From the NCBI GenBank assembly GCA_038318455.1, contig JBBQCF010000002.1, positions 1-50,782 of the forward strand: DNA of 50,782 bases. The letters are read 5' to 3'. Origin of the DNA: Candidatus Moraniibacteriota bacterium (GTDB lineage Bacteria; Patescibacteriota; Minisyncoccia; Moranbacterales; GWC2-37-73). Positions 2,988 through 28,589 of the stretch are shown piece after piece. Numbering within the stretch: position 1 is the stretch's first letter; the number at the start of each line of letters is the position of its first letter. The notes under the pieces are model-generated. The model was not told the origin of the DNA and made no database searches. It saw only the letters and a program-made list of their open reading frames with translations. The position numbers and the translations under genes were made by a program.

Positions 2988-4622
2988 ATGCTTGAAAAAG
3001 AATTAGAAAAATATTTTAACTTCTCAAAATTTCGTCCTGGACAAAAGGAAATTGTCCAGAGCATTATGGACGGAAAAGATGTGGTGGCGCTCATGCCAAC
3101 TGGTGGTGGAAAGTCGCTATGTTTTCAGCTTCCAGCAATTTTGAATAAAAATATTTCTATCGTTATTTCTCCTTTGATTGCCTTGATGCAAGATCAAGTT
3201 GATGCTCTCAACGCACGTGGAATTGCCGCGACATATATCAATAGCTCACTTGATCAATACGAAATTGCTGAGCGTTTTAATGATATCAAAAATGGTAAGA
3301 CCAAGATAGTATATATAGCACCTGAAAGATTTGGTAATCGCGAATTTCAAAAACTTTTTTCAGATTTAGATGTATATTTGTTGGCGGTTGATGAGGCGCA
3401 TTGTGTTTCGCAGTGGGGTCATGATTTTCGTCCAGATTATCTTTCAGTGAAGGAATATATTGCACTGCTAAAAAAGCGTCCTATTGTGGCAGCGTTCACT
3501 GCTACCGCGACTCCTGAAGTTAAGGATGATATTATTGAGCGTCTGGCTCTCAGCGACCCGGCTGTTTTCGTGCGCGGATTTGACAGGCCAAATCTGAAAT
3601 TTTTTGTGCGCGAAAATTTAAAGAAAAATGAAAGAATAGACGAAGCCCTCAGAATTGTTAGATCAATTGAAGGCAGTGGTATCATTTATGCGATTACACG
3701 AAAAGAAACTGAAGCAGTTGCCAAATTTTTGAAAGAAAATGGCATAAAAGCCACTGCATATCACGCCGGAATGGCTGCAGACAAAAGAAGCAAAATTCAA
3801 AATGATTTCATGGAGAATAAGTTCAAAGTTATCGTGGCGACCATTGCTTTTGGCATGGGCGTGGACAAGGCTGATATTCGCTTTGTGATTCATGTGGGAA
3901 TGCCTTCGAGTCCTGAGGGATATTATCAAGAGGCTGGCAGAGCTGGCAGGGATGGCGGGCAAGCATATTGCATTCTGCTTCACTCTAAGGCTGACGCAAG
4001 TTTGCATCATTTTTTCATTATGGCTGGAAAAAGTGAAATGGCTTCGCAAGGTAAAAGTTGGGATGATGTTAAGGTTGTGACTAATATTAAATATGCACGA
4101 CTGGACAAGATGAAAGAATATGTCGGAATTAAGACTTGTCGCAGGTTGCTGCTCTTGGAATATTTCGGTGATCCAGCAGTTGAAAATCATTCTGGCAACT
4201 GCAAGGGTTGCGACGTGTGTTTGAATTTCAAATGGTCAAAAGTAACTGAACCAGAAAGTGAAAGAAAAGAGAATAAAATCAAAAAGAAAAAAGCCAGTGG
4301 TCAATTGGGTGAGTCGGTTTTGGAAAGTGTGGGATTGTATCAGCAAAAATATTCAATAGAAAAAATTGCAAAAATTAGAAGTCTTGGGATTAGTACGGTT
4401 TCAGGACACTTGATGGAATGGTATGCAGCAGGTGGCGAATTCATGATTCAAGACTTTGTTTCATTGAAGCAAGAAAAAGAAATACTTGACGTCATAATGA
4501 AATCTGGTGGGTTCAAGGGACTAAAGGCTATTAAGGAAGCTATTGATGATGGTATAAGTTATGAACAAATTCGTTTTGTTATAATTAAAATGCGCCGTGA
4601 AAAAAAACAGATAAATGTTTAA
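2988..4622 (+). CDS. recQ: ATP-dependent DNA helicase RecQ
   Basis: Walker A MPTGGGKSLCFQLP, DEAH box VDEAHCVSQWGHDFRPDY, RecQ-type Zn-binding Cys cluster (CRR...C..CD.C) and a C-terminal HTH-like tail. Confidence 0.93.
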   Translation: MLEKELEKYFNFSKFRPGQKEIVQSIMDGKDVVALMPTGGGKSLCFQLPAILNKNISIVISPLIALMQDQVDALNARGIAATYINSSLDQYEIAERFNDIKNGKTKIVYIAPERFGNREFQKLFSDLDVYLLAVDEAHCVSQWGHDFRPDYLSVKEYIALLKKRPIVAAFTATATPEVKDDIIERLALSDPAVFVRGFDRPNLKFFVRENLKKNERIDEALRIVRSIEGSGIIYAITRKETEAVAKFLKENGIKATAYHAGMAADKRSKIQNDFMENKFKVIVATIAFGMGVDKADIRFVIHVGMPSSPEGYYQEAGRAGRDGGQAYCILLHSKADASLHHFFIMAGKSEMASQGKSWDDVKVVTNIKYARLDKMKEYVGIKTCRRLLLLEYFGDPAVENHSGNCKGCDVCLNFKWSKVTEPESERKENKIKKKKASGQLGESVLESVGLYQQKYSIEKIAKIRSLGISTVSGHLMEWYAAGGEFMIQDFVSLKQEKEILDVIMKSGGFKGLKAIKEAIDDGISYEQIRFVIIKMRREKKQINV

Positions 4623-5875: not shown

Positions 5876-6853
5876 ATGACTATTCATAAGACAGTATTGC
5901 TGAAAGAGACAGTTGAGGCGCTGAATTTAAAACCAGGCATGATTGTTGTTGATGCAACATTGGGCGGAGGAGGACACAGCTACGAAGTTCTTAAAAAAAT
6001 TGGAAAAAGTGGTAAGCTTATCGCATTTGATCGTGATGAGGATGCAATTAGGCGATTTGAAAAAAGAGTTGAAGTTGGGAGTGATGAAGTTCATGACGAA
6101 AACATTAAATTGTTTCATGACAATTATTCATCCCTAAAAGATAGACTAACTTCAATAAATATTTCTTCAGTCGATGCTATTTTGGCAGATCTTGGTATTT
6201 CGTCAGATCAACTTGCAGATGAAAAAAGAGGAATCAGTTTTCAAGGAAACTCTCCTTTGGACATGCGCATGGATTTAACGAGGGGAATCACGGCAGCAGA
6301 AATTGTTAACACATATTCCGAGCAAGAACTGGTTAGAGTTTTGAGGGAATTTGGAGATGAGCAATATGCGTCTTCTATTGTAAGAAATATTATTGCCCAG
6401 CGCATAGAAAAACCTTTCACCAGAACAATTGAATTGGTCGAAGTTATAGAAAGGTCTGTCCCATCAATGTATAAAAGGAAGAAAATACATCCAGCCACAA
6501 AAACATTCCAAGCGCTAAGGATAGAAGTGAATCAAGAACTCGAAATGCTAGATTCGTTTCTTTCTCAAGCGATTGAAGTATTGAAACCTGGTGGCAGACT
6601 AGCAATCATCACCTTTCATTCTGGTGAAGATGCAAAAGTGAAATACGCATTGAGGGAAAATGCAAGGGGATGCATTTGCCCTCCGGAGTTTCCAGTGTGT
6701 CGTTGCGAAAAAGTTGCGCACATCGAATTGATTACAAGAAAGCCTATCGTGCCTAGTGAGCAAGAGGTCGCTGAAAACCCTCGCTCACGAAGCGCAAAAT
6801 TGCGTATTGCTCAAAAAACGAAACTAGTAAAAGAGAAAAACCCAGTTAAATAG
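5876..6853 (+). CDS. rsmH: 16S rRNA (cytosine1402-N4)-methyltransferase RsmH
   Basis: MTIHKTVLLKETVEAL.., SAM motif DATLGGGGHS. Start moved to the ATG at 5876 because the TTG at 5813 lies inside the repeat element. Confidence 0.92.
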   Translation: MTIHKTVLLKETVEALNLKPGMIVVDATLGGGGHSYEVLKKIGKSGKLIAFDRDEDAIRRFEKRVEVGSDEVHDENIKLFHDNYSSLKDRLTSINISSVDAILADLGISSDQLADEKRGISFQGNSPLDMRMDLTRGITAAEIVNTYSEQELVRVLREFGDEQYASSIVRNIIAQRIEKPFTRTIELVEVIERSVPSMYKRKKIHPATKTFQALRIEVNQELEMLDSFLSQAIEVLKPGGRLAIITFHSGEDAKVKYALRENARGCICPPEFPVCRCEKVAHIELITRKPIVPSEQEVAENPRSRSAKLRIAQKTKLVKEKNPVK

Positions 6854-10783: not shown

Positions 10784-10966
10784 ATGAGAAGAAATCGTCC
10801 GATCAAGCTTCACGATATCAAAGGATTCGTGAAAAGAATGGTGGCTGAATGCAACAATGGTTTGCTCAATAATATGAGCGAATCCGATCTCGTTGATCTG
10901 GAAACAAGATTTGCGGCAAGATTGTTGCATGTTGATTTCAGACCAAAAGTTTTCCTGCCATTTTAA
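10784..10966 (+). CDS. Small hypothetical protein (60 aa)
   Basis: ATG at 10784 preceded by GAGAGGAGA. The TTG start at 10709 in the ORF track lies inside a leader hairpin. A terminator lies downstream. Confidence 0.5.
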   Translation: MRRNRPIKLHDIKGFVKRMVAECNNGLLNNMSESDLVDLETRFAARLLHVDFRPKVFLPF

Positions 10967-10997
10967 AAGGAGAAAATATGTATGACAGAGAAAAAAT

Positions 10998-11045
10998 AAA
11001 CCCTTGGCACATTCAATGAATGTAAGCCAAGGGTTTTTCTTTTTG
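10998..11045 (+). terminator. Rho-independent terminator
   Basis: AAACCCTTGGC (10998-11008) / GCCAAGGGTTT (11025-11035) followed by a T-run. Confidence 0.7.
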
Positions 11046-11239: not shown

Positions 11240-11962
11240 ATGAAAACAAAACTAAAATCCATCGGCTATGTTTTCGGAGTAGTAATTAGTGCAATCGCAC
11301 TTGGAACATTTCTTCAATTTGCCAAAGCTTGGACTGAACCAACAGCAACTCCACCAACTCAAAATATCGGAGCACCAATCAATACTGGAATTATTGGACA
11401 GGGAAAGGCTGGTAATTTTAGTGCAACAGGAATTGTAGCTTCAACATTGTTGGTTACAGGAGATGCTAATATTTCAGGAGCTGGTAACGGGATTGTTTTC
11501 GCTGATGGAACGAAGCAAATAACTGCCACACAAGCAAATAATTCAGTTTCTACGGCTGGGGATAATCTTGGAGATCACACTGCAACGAAGGATTTAGATA
11601 TGGGGGGAAAAGCTATTGATAATGTATCTGACATTACACTTTTTTTCAATGGTATACCTGTTACGTTAAAACCTGCCTATGCTAACCTAGGTGAAGATAC
11701 TTATACTACGACAAGTTTTTATGCTGGTAATTATAATACTAATGTTTCAGGTTCAGCTTATAATTCAAGCGATACGTGTAGTGGTGATGGTACGAATAAA
11801 TATTTTTGTGTAGTTAATGTTAATAAGGATTGTATAGATTACTATGCTACTGTACATTCAATGTCATTAGGTAGCTATGGAACACAACTTATTAGCAATG
11901 TTCAATCGCAGCATGTTATTTGCAAGAAGGCTGTGTCGGCAGTATTTACTGGGCTTGAATAA
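11240..11962 (+). CDS. Secreted surface protein, hypothetical
   Basis: Signal peptide ending AKA/WTEPTATPP. Gly/Thr/Asn-rich beta-type sequence with a Cys-containing C-terminal half. Confidence 0.7.
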   Translation: MKTKLKSIGYVFGVVISAIALGTFLQFAKAWTEPTATPPTQNIGAPINTGIIGQGKAGNFSATGIVASTLLVTGDANISGAGNGIVFADGTKQITATQANNSVSTAGDNLGDHTATKDLDMGGKAIDNVSDITLFFNGIPVTLKPAYANLGEDTYTTTSFYAGNYNTNVSGSAYNSSDTCSGDGTNKYFCVVNVNKDCIDYYATVHSMSLGSYGTQLISNVQSQHVICKKAVSAVFTGLE

Positions 11963-11994
11963 TTTTGTATGTATTTTTCTTAAAAATAAAAAGC

Positions 11995-12588
11995 ATGAAT
12001 TGGAAAAAGATGTTTATTATATTGATTATATCTGCCATTGTTATCCTTGTCTTTTTGGCGAGTTCCTTTATTATTGTTAAAAATAAATCTAAAAATCCTC
12101 AAAATGTGCAAATTAATCAAAAAATTGATGTCCCAGACGATTTTAAAAAGGAGCAACTTGATGCTATCAAGGCAAATGCTGAAATTAGGAAGGTTATTGG
12201 CTTTATTGAAAAAATTTCTAATAGCACATTTATCATAAGACTCTATCCTATCCAGCAGGGTATTTTTAGTGCAAATGGCTTAGTGCTTGCACATATTACC
12301 CCCCAAACAAAATTCTATAATTTAATTCAAGTAAATACTATTAAGGCTGATCAGAAAGATGTAAATATTGGCCAAGACTCATCATTAAATCAGATAAATA
12401 ATGAACATGTGGGAAACGTTGTCAATATTGAAAACCCAGAACCTTCTGATGGAAAAGTTGAAATAAAAATTGATGACATCAAAGAGGGTCAATATATTTC
12501 TGCGATTTCAAGTTATGATATATCTGGAAATAATGAATTTTTTGCAACAGATATAAACCTTGAGTTTAGTCAAAATGCCGGTCAATAA
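11995..12588 (+). CDS. Membrane-anchored hypothetical protein
   Basis: ATG at 11995 (MNWKKMFIILIISAIVILVFLASSFII) is preferred over the TTG at 11965. Confidence 0.6.
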   Translation: MNWKKMFIILIISAIVILVFLASSFIIVKNKSKNPQNVQINQKIDVPDDFKKEQLDAIKANAEIRKVIGFIEKISNSTFIIRLYPIQQGIFSANGLVLAHITPQTKFYNLIQVNTIKADQKDVNIGQDSSLNQINNEHVGNVVNIENPEPSDGKVEIKIDDIKEGQYISAISSYDISGNNEFFATDINLEFSQNAGQ

Positions 12589-12710
12589 TATCCTGCTTTG
12601 CGATAAAGCTCATAATAGTATTAGTAGGTGACTTTACAAAAATAATTAACAAATATTATTAAATAGATTATATAGAATAAACTGACCCTTGTGGCCAGTT
12701 TTATTTTATA

Positions 12711-12822
12711 TGGTAGCGCCAAGGAGAGTCGCCTCTTGCTCCGACTTCGAGGCTGCGGCGCTACACACAGAATGCTCGCACATTCGCATCCTACTTGCGC
12801 CGGTCCAATTCTCCTTGGCGCA
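12711..12822 (-). ncRNA. Unclassified structured RNA, unit A: tRNA-minihelix-like terminal stem, two internal hairpins, encoded ACCA 3' end
   Basis: All on the - strand. A 12-bp perfect terminal stem pairs GCGCCAAGGAGA with UCUCCUUGGCGC. Helices CGGCGC/GCGCCG, GAAUG/CAUUC and GCCUC/GAGGC all covary with unit B. The region is a GC-rich island, and a hairpin plus U-run follows the unit. Confidence 0.6.
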
Positions 12823-12874
12823 TTATTGAAAAAGCAAAAACACCCAATAAAAATGGGTGCTCTTGCTTTATTTG

Positions 12875-12986
12875 TAGCGCCAAGGAGAATCGCCCTTTGC
12901 TCCGACTTCAGGGCTGGGGCACTTCACACAAGAAAAGCTGCGCTCACTCGCTTTTCACTTGTGCCCGTCCGATTCTCTCTTGCCAC
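12875..12986 (-). ncRNA. Unclassified structured RNA, unit B, a paralog of unit A
   Basis: Same architecture with compensatory helices GGGCAC/GUGCCC, GAAAAGC/GCUUUUC and GCCCU/AGGGC. Identical 13-nt loop GAAGUCGGAGCAA. The 3' end is identical to the tRNA-Glu 3' end. The terminal stem has a bulge and one mismatch. Confidence 0.55.
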
Positions 12987-13034
12987 TAAACAAATTTAAA
13001 AGCCCTCACGAATGAGGACCTTTAAAAAAATTTG

Positions 13035-13106
13035 TAGCGCCAAGGAGAATCGGACTCCTGTTACCAGGATGAGAACCTGGTGTCCTAGCCACTAGACGAT
13101 GGCGCC
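13035..13106 (-). tRNA. tRNA-Glu (anticodon CUC), no encoded CCA
   Basis: The cloverleaf folds by hand as GGCGCCA-TC-GTCT-AGTGGCTA-GGAC-A-CCAGG-TTCTCAT-CCTGG-TAAC-AGGAG-TCCGATT-CTCCT-TGGCGCT-A. The D-arm closely matches E. coli tRNA-Glu. The T-loop is unusual, with C at position 55. Confidence 0.85.
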
Positions 13107-13119
13107 ATGTACAAAGGAA

Positions 13120-13148
13120 ATTGTAGCAAGCTTTTTTAAATCTATCAA
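13120..13148 (-). promoter_or_regulatory. Promoter of tRNA-Glu
   Basis: On the - strand: TTGATA (13148-13143), 17-nt spacer, TACAAT (13125-13120). It lies about 14 nt upstream of the tRNA 5' end. Confidence 0.6.
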
Positions 13149-13179
13149 GCATTTTTAATCTAAATATTTCTTGGGTAAG

Positions 13180-13215
13180 AAAAAAGGAAATGTTTCGATA
13201 AACATTTCCTTTTTA
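13180..13215. terminator. Bidirectional terminator hairpin
   Basis: Perfect 11-bp stem AGGAAATGTTT (13185-13195) / AAACATTTCCT (13200-13210), flanked by an A-run and a T-run. It lies downstream of the - strand gene 13233-13808. Confidence 0.7.
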
Positions 13216-28110: not shown

Positions 28111-28589
28111 AATTTATCAAAGTAATTAGGCAATCGCTGTTTTCGCAAGAAAATAGAGGAAAGTCCGGACGTTTCCCATGAAAGTGGGAGCATGGTAGCG
28201 GGTAACCCCCGTCAGAAGTGATTCTCGAGGTGCGAGCAGAGACGCCTGAACGTGAAAACAATCAGGCACCCTGATTTATTAGGGTGAATTTCTATGGCAA
28301 CATAGAAGGTGAAACGGCTAAATCCTTACCTGGACGCAAGACCGTGCTCCAGTGCGTGGCACTGGAAATTTCAAAAATCAAATTACAAATTCCAAACAAT
28401 TTTCAAATAGAAAATAAATCAAGAGTATTTCTTTGTTTGGTGCTTGTTTCTTGTGATTTGTATTTTCCAATGCTGTGCATTGGTAGAGTGTCGCTTGACT
28501 CCGACGGTAACGTCGGAGCTAGATAAATGATTGTCATCAATTTGAAAAAATTGACACAGAATCCGGCTTATAGATTACTTTGATAAATT
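28111..28589 (+). ncRNA. rnpB: RNase P RNA (bacterial type A-like) with a large AT-rich insertion
   Basis: P4 signature AGAGGAAAGTCCGGAC (28155-28170) and ACAGAATCCGGCTTAT (28556-28571). P1 pairs 28111-28126 with 28574-28589. GGTGAAACGG and AGATAAATGATTGTC elements are also present. Confidence 0.9.

Follow-up and report, generated by a model that had tools for sequence, protein, structure and literature searches.

Tandem structured RNA units with covarying helices and a tRNA-derived 3' strand behind the tRNA-Glu(CUC) gene of Candidatus Moranbacteria

The locus described here lies in a 50,782-nt stretch of contig JBBQCF010000002.1 (the window), a core cell-wall and cell-shape gene region of the chromosome that is placed in Candidatus Moranbacteria by its polyprenyl-synthase and Mur-ligase homologs (nearest relatives, 78 to 85% identical at the protein level). 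A tRNA-Glu(CUC) gene is followed on the minus strand by hairpin T1, unit B, hairpin T2, unit A, and hairpin T3, all of which are read on that strand (Table 1). The units are four-helix RNAs of ∼110 nt, or more in members with insertions. As shown below, the units form a conserved, covarying structure that is linked to tRNA-Glu, lies on the tRNA strand, is built from a tRNA-derived 3' strand and an antisense 5' arm, and varies in copy number. The succession of tRNA, unit B, and unit A had been proposed in a first-pass annotation of the sequence, and all three were recovered where it had placed them. The segment is also, as proposed there, a GC-rich island (GC content of 0.45 to 0.51, versus 0.26 to 0.35 in the flanks).

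The tRNA and both units end in the same strand, as the first-pass annotation had noted. The 18-mer GAYTCTCCTTGGCGCTAC (GAYUCUCCUUGGCGCUAC) occurs exactly three times in the 50.8 kb (positions 13034-13051, 12874-12891, and 12713-12730), each time on the minus strand, with a chance expectation of 0.02. The tRNA and unit B are identical at 23 of 23 nt (13030-13052 and 12870-12892), a match that includes 5 nt past the tRNA end. The tRNA itself has a G1.U72 pair and the T-loop UCCGAUU, and its CCA is not encoded. A 13-nt loop, GAAGTCGGAGCAA, was likewise found in two exact occurrences, in units A and B, in agreement with the earlier reading. The hairpins with U-runs that had been reported after the tRNA and after each unit are all more stable on the minus than on the plus strand by folding energy, and T3 holds a G.U pair; T3 may also serve as a terminator for the convergent plus-strand gene ending at 12588. 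The single good promoter-like site, of the extended −10 type, lies immediately 5' of the tRNA, and no comparable site was seen upstream of unit A or unit B.

Table 1. Features of the tRNA-Glu(CUC) locus and of units A and B, with the type 2 tRNA genes of two related loci
Feature	Position	Strand	Evidence or remark
Promoter-like site upstream of tRNA-Glu	13120-13148	−	TTGATA, 17-nt spacer, TACAAT, TG ahead of the −10 hexamer
tRNA-Glu(CUC), type 2	13035-13106	−	ARAGORN; Rfam tRNA, 57.8 bits
Hairpin T1 + U-run, terminator-like, directly 3' of tRNA	12995-13026	−	−16.8 kcal/mol on minus, −8.1 on plus
Unit B	12875-12986	−	Fold, A/B alignment, covariance model (139 bits)
Unit B P1	5' arm 12986-12974; tRNA-type 3' strand 12888-12877, then U, A	−	
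Unit B J1/2	12973-12967	−	AAUCGGAC
Unit B P2	12966-12961 with 12922-12917	−	
Unit B P3	12958-12950 with 12938-12928	−	
Unit B P4	12914-12910 with 12896-12892; loop 12909-12897	−	
tRNA 3'-strand copy within unit B	12874-12891	−	Exact-repeat search
Hairpin T2 + U-run, between units B and A	12831-12869	−	−23.5 kcal/mol on minus, −15.4 on plus
Unit A	12711-12821	−	Fold, A/B alignment, covariance model (123 bits)
Unit A P1	5' arm 12821-12810; 3' strand 12727-12716	−	
Unit A J1/2	12809-12803	−	AAUUGGAC
Unit A P2	12802-12797 with 12761-12756	−	
Unit A P3	12794-12786 with 12775-12767	−	
Unit A P4	12753-12749 with 12735-12731; loop 12748-12736	−	
Unit A tail	12715-12711	−	UACCA
tRNA 3'-strand copy within unit A	12713-12730	−	One U-to-C change in the T-loop-derived part
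Hairpin T3 + U-rich tail, 3' of unit A	12679-12701	−	−12.6 kcal/mol on minus, −11.0 on plus; one G.U pair
tRNA-Glu(CUC), type 2, locus L035	3583-3655		
tRNA-Glu(CUC), type 2, locus L047	7269-7341		

Unconstrained folding of unit A closed the RNA with a 12-bp helix (P1), inside which lay a long P2-P3 arm and a P4 hairpin capped by the 13-nt loop (−50.1 kcal/mol, z = −3.3). This fold confirmed the perfect 12-bp stem enclosing two hairpins that the first-pass annotation had drawn, but not its first base: the outermost paired base is G12821, and U12822 lies opposite U12715. The inner helix of the earlier drawing, GAAUG/CAUUC, had to be given up; it is absent from unit C (a homolog described below), and the P3 helix backed by comparison is GUAGGAUGC/GCAUUCUGU. 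P1 of unit B is imperfect, with a G/G mismatch, an A bulge, and a U.G pair.

Units A and B were then compared pair by pair. MAFFT alone misplaced the bulges and was replaced by a structure-registered alignment with N placeholders at the bulges, comprising 32 pairs (64 pair cells). Standard pairs filled 98.4% of the cells. Seven pairs differed on both sides, and all seven were still paired, compared with 0 to 1 when the 3' partners were slid by 1 to 3 columns; the earlier claim that the A and B helices are kept by compensation is thus upheld. The indels between the two units are 1, 1, and 2 nt long, so no reading frame is conserved on either strand. A coding reading of the units on either strand was rejected on account of this unconserved frame, the indels themselves, and the lack of a Pfam hit. 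A 102-amino-acid (aa) plus-strand open reading frame (ORF; 12691-12999) covers both units and is almost certainly spurious.

Homologs were sought by synteny-guided locus fetching together with a covariance model (R1) built from units A and B; related loci are denoted here by L numbers. Unit C was found in L035, a 469-kb JGI contig (68.6 bits with R1), in the order tRNA-Glu (72 of 72 nt identical to that of the window), hairpin, unit C, and second hairpin; in an independent assembly (L036), the contig begins inside unit C. Unit D (∼220 nt) was found in L047 and L048, both GROS21 scaffolds (27.2 bits with R1), in the order tRNA-Glu (three differences from that of the window), hairpin, unit D, and another hairpin. 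With a second model (R2) built from all four units, C and D scored 88.6 and 44.2 bits, respectively, and a search with R2 of 172 kb (the window and 17 related loci) revealed no further copy. All four units thus far found lie directly behind tRNA-Glu, with copy numbers per genome of 1, 1, and 2. Extended −10 sites precede the tRNA in L035 and L047 as well, so that one such promoter is present in all three genomes.

Scans of large collections with loop patterns gave chance hits only, in unrelated GC-rich contigs, both for GTDB genomes (GAAGTCGGAGCAANNNNNCGANTC) and for JGI metagenomes and IMG/VR (CAGNNNNNGAAGTCGGAGCAANNNNNCGA). These patterns are blind to units C and D, in which the loop is GAGUCGGAGCGAA or is interrupted by an insertion, and the scans therefore say little about distribution. 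Because the scan pattern proved too specific, the true distribution of the units is probably wider than the four found. A scan of IMG/VR with a 5' arm/P2 pattern gave nine hits, none of which fitted the model or adjoined a tRNA.

The presence of a unit goes together with the type of tRNA. All unit-bearing genomes have the type 2 tRNA-Glu(CUC), with a G1.U72 pair and a T-loop, UCCGAUU, that carries C at the nearly universal U55. The unit-free relatives (L012, L021-L028, and L031) have a type 1 tRNA-Glu (GUCGCUA..., T-loop UUCGAUU) that differs at ∼14 positions, and at the syntenic site they have the tRNA and a terminator but no unit. A 191-aa neighboring ORF has one homolog cluster, the loci of which also have a type 1 tRNA-Glu and no unit; look-ups of two neighboring ORFs by exact protein sequence gave no match.

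The four units were compared in an alignment (A3) that was edited by hand: the 22-nt loop insertion of unit C was removed, the 5' side of P2 and P3 of unit D was masked, and N placeholders were added. On its own and unconstrained, unit C folds into the same four helices as unit A. In the alignment, 95.7% of pair cells were paired, and nine changes on both sides were still paired (one in P1, two in P2, three in P3, and three in P4), compared with 0 to 2 in slid controls. None of 500 shuffles reached the observed covariation. Homologs had been named by the first-pass annotation as a check on its helices, and the units of the two other genomes do keep them by compensation. At the base of P3, all four units retain two G.U pairs (alignment columns 30-60 and 31-59); the plus strand would give A.C mismatches at these positions, which points to an RNA on the unit strand (minus in the window).

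Unit interiors are 59 to 82% identical between genomes, while the 120 nt upstream of the tRNAs show 49 to 54% identity, compared with a shuffled baseline of 51%. Units A and B are 76% identical, a divergence as great as that of A from C and D. The conserved single-stranded elements are J1/2 (AAUYGGAC), a CAG ahead of P4, and a P4-loop motif (UCGGAGCRAA); the exact 13-mer loop common to A and B is not conserved in the four-unit set. P1 is invariant over its inner 8 to 9 bp in units A to D, and mismatches occur in its outer, acceptor-like part in B, C, and D. The loop insertion of unit C holds a second 5'-arm-like copy, CGCCAAGGUGGAUCGGAG (15 of 18 nt matching). A pseudoknot between GAC of J1/2 and GUC of the P4 loop is possible in A, B, and D but is broken in unit C.

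A feature absent from the first-pass annotation is that the 5' arm of the units is the reverse complement of the tRNA from G53 to C71, covering the T-loop, the 3' strand of the T-stem, and the 3' strand of the acceptor stem. The arm of unit A matches the antisense tRNA segment at 18 of 19 nt, and that of unit B at 11 of 11 nt (GAGAAUCGGAC and GUCCGAUUCUC). From its 13th nt on, the arm reads as the antisense T-loop (AAUCGGA; 7 of 7 nt in unit B) and not as the sense one, so that it is an inverted copy rather than a deletion derivative of the tRNA. A deeper antisense-tRNA ancestry of the first 39 nt of unit A (74% identity; AGGAUGCGAA compared with the antisense anticodon loop) was rejected, because the similarity is not significant without the first 19 nt and is not shared by unit B.

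The direction of the arm bears on the possibility that the units are decaying tRNA-Glu pseudogenes left by tandem duplication. A pseudogene would account for the common tRNA 3' end. The segment CAGCCYYGAAGUCGGAG is also weakly collinear with the anticodon-stem/V-loop/T-stem part of the relatives' tRNA-Glu (14 of 17 nt in A, P of ∼0.01 uncorrected; 13 of 17 nt in B, P of ∼0.11), and the first bases of unit B resemble a D-loop. However, ARAGORN and Rfam call only the true tRNA-Glu and no cloverleaf in the units, and the unit interiors have no significant similarity to the window's own tRNA in either orientation. The antisense course of the 5' arm and the compensation that keeps the helices across genomes, which speaks of selection and not of decay, also contradict a pseudogene origin, and we regard it as very unlikely.

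Because the 5' arm is antisense to the tRNA segment, each arm has two pairing options. Register 1 joins the arm to the 3' strand of its own unit (P1). Register 2, in which the arm reaches over the intervening hairpin to the tRNA-type strand upstream, is chosen by the minimum-energy fold of the whole transcript. In three of three genomes, the stretch that runs from G53 of the tRNA through the spacer and the terminator to the 5' arm of the first unit makes up a near-perfect 80- to 92-nt hairpin (−49 to −58 kcal/mol), which is also picked up by miRNA-precursor models of Rfam. In addition, the invariant GGAC of J1/2 is complementary to GUCC of the tRNA T-loop and not to the unit's own 3' flank. 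These features would be expected if the units were a cis-acting part of the tRNA-Glu operon, with the 5' arm lengthening the terminator hairpin and read-through transcripts refolding into a long hairpin that competes with the cloverleaf and tunes termination, maturation, or decay. Yet the tRNA folds first during transcription and would need to be unfolded, the conserved and covarying P2-P4 interior is left unexplained, and so is the second unit, whose upstream partner has no GUCC; register 1 also explains the same covariation. A purely cis-acting role is thus rather unlikely in our estimation.

The unit changes in concert with its tRNA. In L047, pair 49-65 of the tRNA T-stem is G-C instead of A-U, and unit D tracks this change with a matching C in the 3' strand and a matching G in the 5' arm. 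The flanks of the hairpins are shared as well: CUACARAUUUUU...AAAG / CUUUUAAAUUUG is common to T1 of the window and to the hairpins after units C and D. Hairpin order varies, and L035 carries the tRNA-unit block in the opposite orientation to that of the window and L047. We infer that the between-genome differences fit recurrent recombination between the repeated tRNA-type 3' ends.

Two further observations concern this block. Among relatives, the small intergenic tRNA-Glu block flips repeatedly: the tRNA-Glu gene, with its unit if present, is turned with respect to the Mur ligase and polyprenyl synthase genes in L021-L028 and L035 compared with the window, L012, L031, and L047. In L035, the sequence UUUGUCUAGC (3861-3880), which follows the hairpin behind unit C, repeats the bases that precede unit D (GUCUAGCGAAAGG) and unit B (GUUUAGUGGCAAG) and may be the stump of a lost second unit.

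Such rearrangement could also mean that the units are nonfunctional by-products of events at the DNA level, namely, extension of a palindrome by template switching around the terminator, which would have produced the antisense 5' arm, followed by unequal crossing-over at the repeated 3' ends, with the arms kept alike by gene conversion and not by selection. The 23-nt identity of tRNA and unit B running 5 nt past the tRNA end, the shuffled hairpin order, the variable copy number and the inverted block, the copying of lineage-specific tRNA bases (C55 and C65) into the 5' arm, and the decay of outer P1 in B, C, and D all fit such an origin. It does not account for eight compensatory changes on both sides of P2 to P4, or for conserved G.U pairs, which palindrome repair would correct. 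Nor does it account for an interior conserved far above saturated flanks, for the loop motif UCGGAGCRAA and J1/2 kept in four units, or for the retention of both A and B at a divergence like that of A from C and D. An origin at the DNA level could plausibly have given rise to the arms and made them follow the tRNA, but it does not explain the compensation in P2 to P4 and the G.U pairs; that the units are by-products and nothing else is improbable.

Mobile elements were considered on similar grounds. Direct repeats from the tRNA T-loop to the tRNA 3' end are typical of integrase att sites (attL and attR of genomic islands), and the units share this arrangement; they are also bracketed by a 12- to 14-bp inverted repeat, as a miniature inverted-repeat transposable element (MITE) targeting the tRNA 3' end would be. 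Adjoining unit A is ∼1.7 kb of extra DNA with two ORFs of no known family. In contrast to att sites, only 160 nt separate the repeats, there is no island, and a conserved, covarying RNA lies between them. No recombinase, integrase, transposase, reverse transcriptase, or phage-like protein is encoded in the 50-kb window, the flanking ORFs included. The inverted repeat corresponds to the sequence of the neighboring tRNA and, in L047, has changed along with it. In the 172 kb searched, every copy lies behind tRNA-Glu, and no further tRNA-end or unit copy was found; IMG/VR gave no matches. That the units are att-site scars or a MITE-like element is therefore extremely improbable.

The two ORFs beside unit A (11240-11962 and 11965-12588, plus strand; 240 and 207 aa) are located between the unit and the Mur ligase region. 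They had no significant match in Pfam, PHROGs, or NCBIfam (one subthreshold match, DUF7798 at 16.6 bits, with a cutoff of 27). The syntenic loci L012, L035, and L047 lack both ORFs, which makes them lineage-specific extra DNA adjoining the units. A conserved ORF of ∼60 aa follows the Mur ligase in the window (10785-11040, plus strand), L012, L035, L046, and L047; a conserved hairpin (AAACCCTTGGC...GCCAAGGGTTT) comes next wherever the contig extends that far, and the L046 contig ends inside the ORF. In close relatives, contigs break upstream of the polyprenyl synthase gene at an ORF starting with MKYQHFTIQEREKIQEY (L008, 1-380; L010, 1-135). By eye, this ORF has the look of an IS30-family transposase N terminus, and such a gene, rather than the units, would account for these breaks. 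In Moranbacteria GW2011_GWE1_36_7 (L032 and L034, ∼6205-6659), adjacent genes for bAvd and a reverse transcriptase (RVT_1) indicate a diversity-generating retroelement, located a few kilobases downstream of the syntenic region.

The units were next compared with known RNA families. As the first-pass annotation had held on the basis of the letters, neither a cloverleaf nor 5S rRNA, signal recognition particle (SRP) RNA, or transfer-messenger RNA (tmRNA) fits them: Rfam searches at gathering thresholds and, over 12600-13200, at an E value of ≤10 returned no credible family for units A and B, including 5S rRNA, SRP RNA, and 6S RNA. ARAGORN found no tmRNA, the unit pair equivalent to G3:U70 is G-C, and there is no conserved tag ORF. 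Bacterial Y RNA gave no Rfam match, and no TROVE/Ro60 protein was found among the scanned window ORFs. The Rfam RtT model had no match to A or B at an E value of ≤10 or to C or D at an E value of ≤1 (gathering score, 45 bits). In layout, however, the units resemble RtT: they lie directly behind a tRNA and each ends in the tRNA 3'-terminal segment (window, L035, and L047), and the 5' arm and tRNA-derived 3' strand form a closing helix around a branched interior.

This likeness was examined in the tyrT-tyrV-rttR region of E. coli K-12, which was fetched and compared. Three 178-bp repeats lie behind tyrV, with a diverged copy between tyrT and tyrV; Rfam RtT (RF00391) matched four of four copies at 133 to 137 bits. 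Each repeat ends with AAUCCUUCCCCCACCACCA, which is the tRNA-Tyr 3' end; farther upstream it has GGGGAAGGAUGAGAAGCUUCGA, with 86% complementarity to the T-arm/acceptor strand of tRNA-Tyr. In the RtT consensus, GgGaaGGAU pairs with AUCCuuCcC around a branched interior, and ccaCCACCA is single stranded.

The RtT repeats and the units described here have the same design. Both stand in tandem directly behind a tRNA gene, with ∼19 nt of the tRNA 3' end at the end of every unit, both are closed by an antisense T-arm/acceptor 5' arm on a tRNA-type 3' strand, and both have a GC-rich, multibranched interior, variable copy number, and similar dimensions (structured part of ∼112 to 130 nt, repeat period of 160 to 178 nt). 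Each is overlapped by a spurious ORF on the opposite strand (ychS in E. coli); the E. coli repeats also carry tpr on the same strand. There are also differences. The R2 model scores ≤6.9 bits on the E. coli locus, so that neither sequence nor model shows homology, and the tRNA is Glu in a bacterium of the candidate phyla radiation (CPR) here but Tyr in an enterobacterium for RtT. The spacers here hold a hairpin and U-run, while those of E. coli have no structure; every RtT unit of E. coli encodes CCA, which here is found in unit A only; and the closing stem is 12 to 13 bp here and ∼10 bp in E. coli. The units are not homologous to RtT by these searches, and we take the same design to have been reached independently.

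The rtT RNA is 171 nt long and is released from the tRNA primary transcript by processing, and Rfam classes RtT as Cis-reg. RtT has been described as a processed product of the tyrT operon, and a link to the stringent response has been suggested but is unproven (PMC3318445; bioRxiv 10.1101/2024.07.17.603846).

Other RNAs share single aspects with the units. RNAs of the 3'ETS-leuZ type act as base-pairing sponges and require Hfq and RNase E; they are short and unstructured and have no copies of a tRNA end. Small RNAs derived from tRNA spacers and trailers, such as E. coli 3'ETS-leuZ, have been reviewed (PMC8383071). 3'ETS-leuZ is a functional RNA cut from a tRNA operon transcript by tRNA processing; the units instead are highly structured and repeated. 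The YrlA RNA has a tRNA-like distal module with canonical D- and T-loops and a terminal stem that binds Ro60 (PMC4201824). YrlA and the units are both structured RNAs of ∼110 nt with tandem paralogs (often so in YrlA), an end-to-end stem, and a tRNA-like element, but the tRNA-derived part is the terminal stem in the units and the distal module in YrlA.

The tRNA-like substrates of RNase P and the CCA-adding enzyme include the 4.5S RNA precursor, the tRNA-like domain of tmRNA, viral tRNA-like structures, and mascRNA. Like minihelix substrates, unit A has a 12-bp coaxial helix, U at −1, G at +1, and a single-stranded ACCA tail; unlike them, its helix has no closing T-loop and opens into a three-way junction. 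An uninterrupted helix of ∼12 bp followed by NCCA is found in unit A only; units B, C, and D are mismatched in the outer stem and end in ACAA, ACAG, and ACAA, respectively. The minihelix with an ACCA end proposed in the first-pass annotation thus holds for unit A but does not describe the family, because outer P1 is mismatched and CCA is absent in B, C, and D. Neither the perfect helix nor CCA is conserved in the other units, and there is no G3:U70 pair and no tag ORF. The suggestion that the units act as a decoy for glutamyl-tRNA synthetase is unlikely to be correct, because they have nothing resembling a D arm or an anticodon arm. RNase P is known to act as a molecular ruler (PMC4919913). 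The window encodes a bacterial type A RNase P RNA (28118-28586, plus strand; 137 bits) of 469 nt, compared with 367 nt in the model, with a ∼100-nt AU-rich insertion after model position 245 and several peripheral helices that align poorly.

Taken together, we consider it probable that units A and B are members of a small family of structured RNAs, not described before, that is linked to one type of tRNA-Glu(CUC) gene in Candidatus Moranbacteria and whose RNAs are made by read-through, processed at tRNA-like ends, and act through the interior. Since the units have no promoter of their own, they would be transcribed by read-through from the tRNA-Glu promoter. The tRNA maturation machinery would then set the ends, with the 3' end at the tRNA-like discriminator position and the 5' end either at the base of P1, in an RNase P-like manner, or right after the upstream tRNA-type end, as in E. 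coli rtT RNA. The released RNA would be stable and could act through its conserved interior, by binding a partner or by influencing the maturation of tRNA-Glu.

Several points weigh against this proposal. In every genome, a terminator-like hairpin separates the tRNA from the first unit, and read-through may be low as a result. Three of four units have an imperfect tRNA-like end and CCA is encoded in A alone, which weakens the step of processing by mimicry. The 5' arm may instead pair in register 2 (−49 to −58 kcal/mol), and the data do not separate the two registers. The sample consists of four units from three genomes, and alignment A3, being curated by hand, leans toward the proposed structure. 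Finally, unit D has no recognizable 5' strands of P2 and P3, and the full fold is thus not kept in every member.

More tentatively, and at a probability clearly below even, the units might constitute a dedicated riboregulator or tRNA mimic coupled to the C55-bearing tRNA-Glu(CUC). The antisense arm and GGAC would sense or control the folding and maturation of this tRNA in cis or in trans; alternatively, the tRNA-like end would be displayed to a partner while P2 to P4 bind a protein. If this were true, the units would represent a general convergent class of "tRNA-end-capped" RNAs, given that E. coli RtT reached the same design independently, and would offer a handle on the role of RtT, a question now 35 years old.

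In practical terms, the repeats coincide with at least one assembly break (L036) and yield spurious ORF calls. For the CPR/Patescibacteria, whose noncoding RNA repertoire is almost unexplored, the units add an RNA family supported by covariation, and they are the first clear architectural counterpart of RtT found outside enterobacteria in this analysis. Independent evolution of the two suggests either a general route, by palindrome extension at a terminator and unequal recombination, or a selective gain from a tRNA-end cap. Either reading would inform how the trailers of tRNA operons become functional RNAs.

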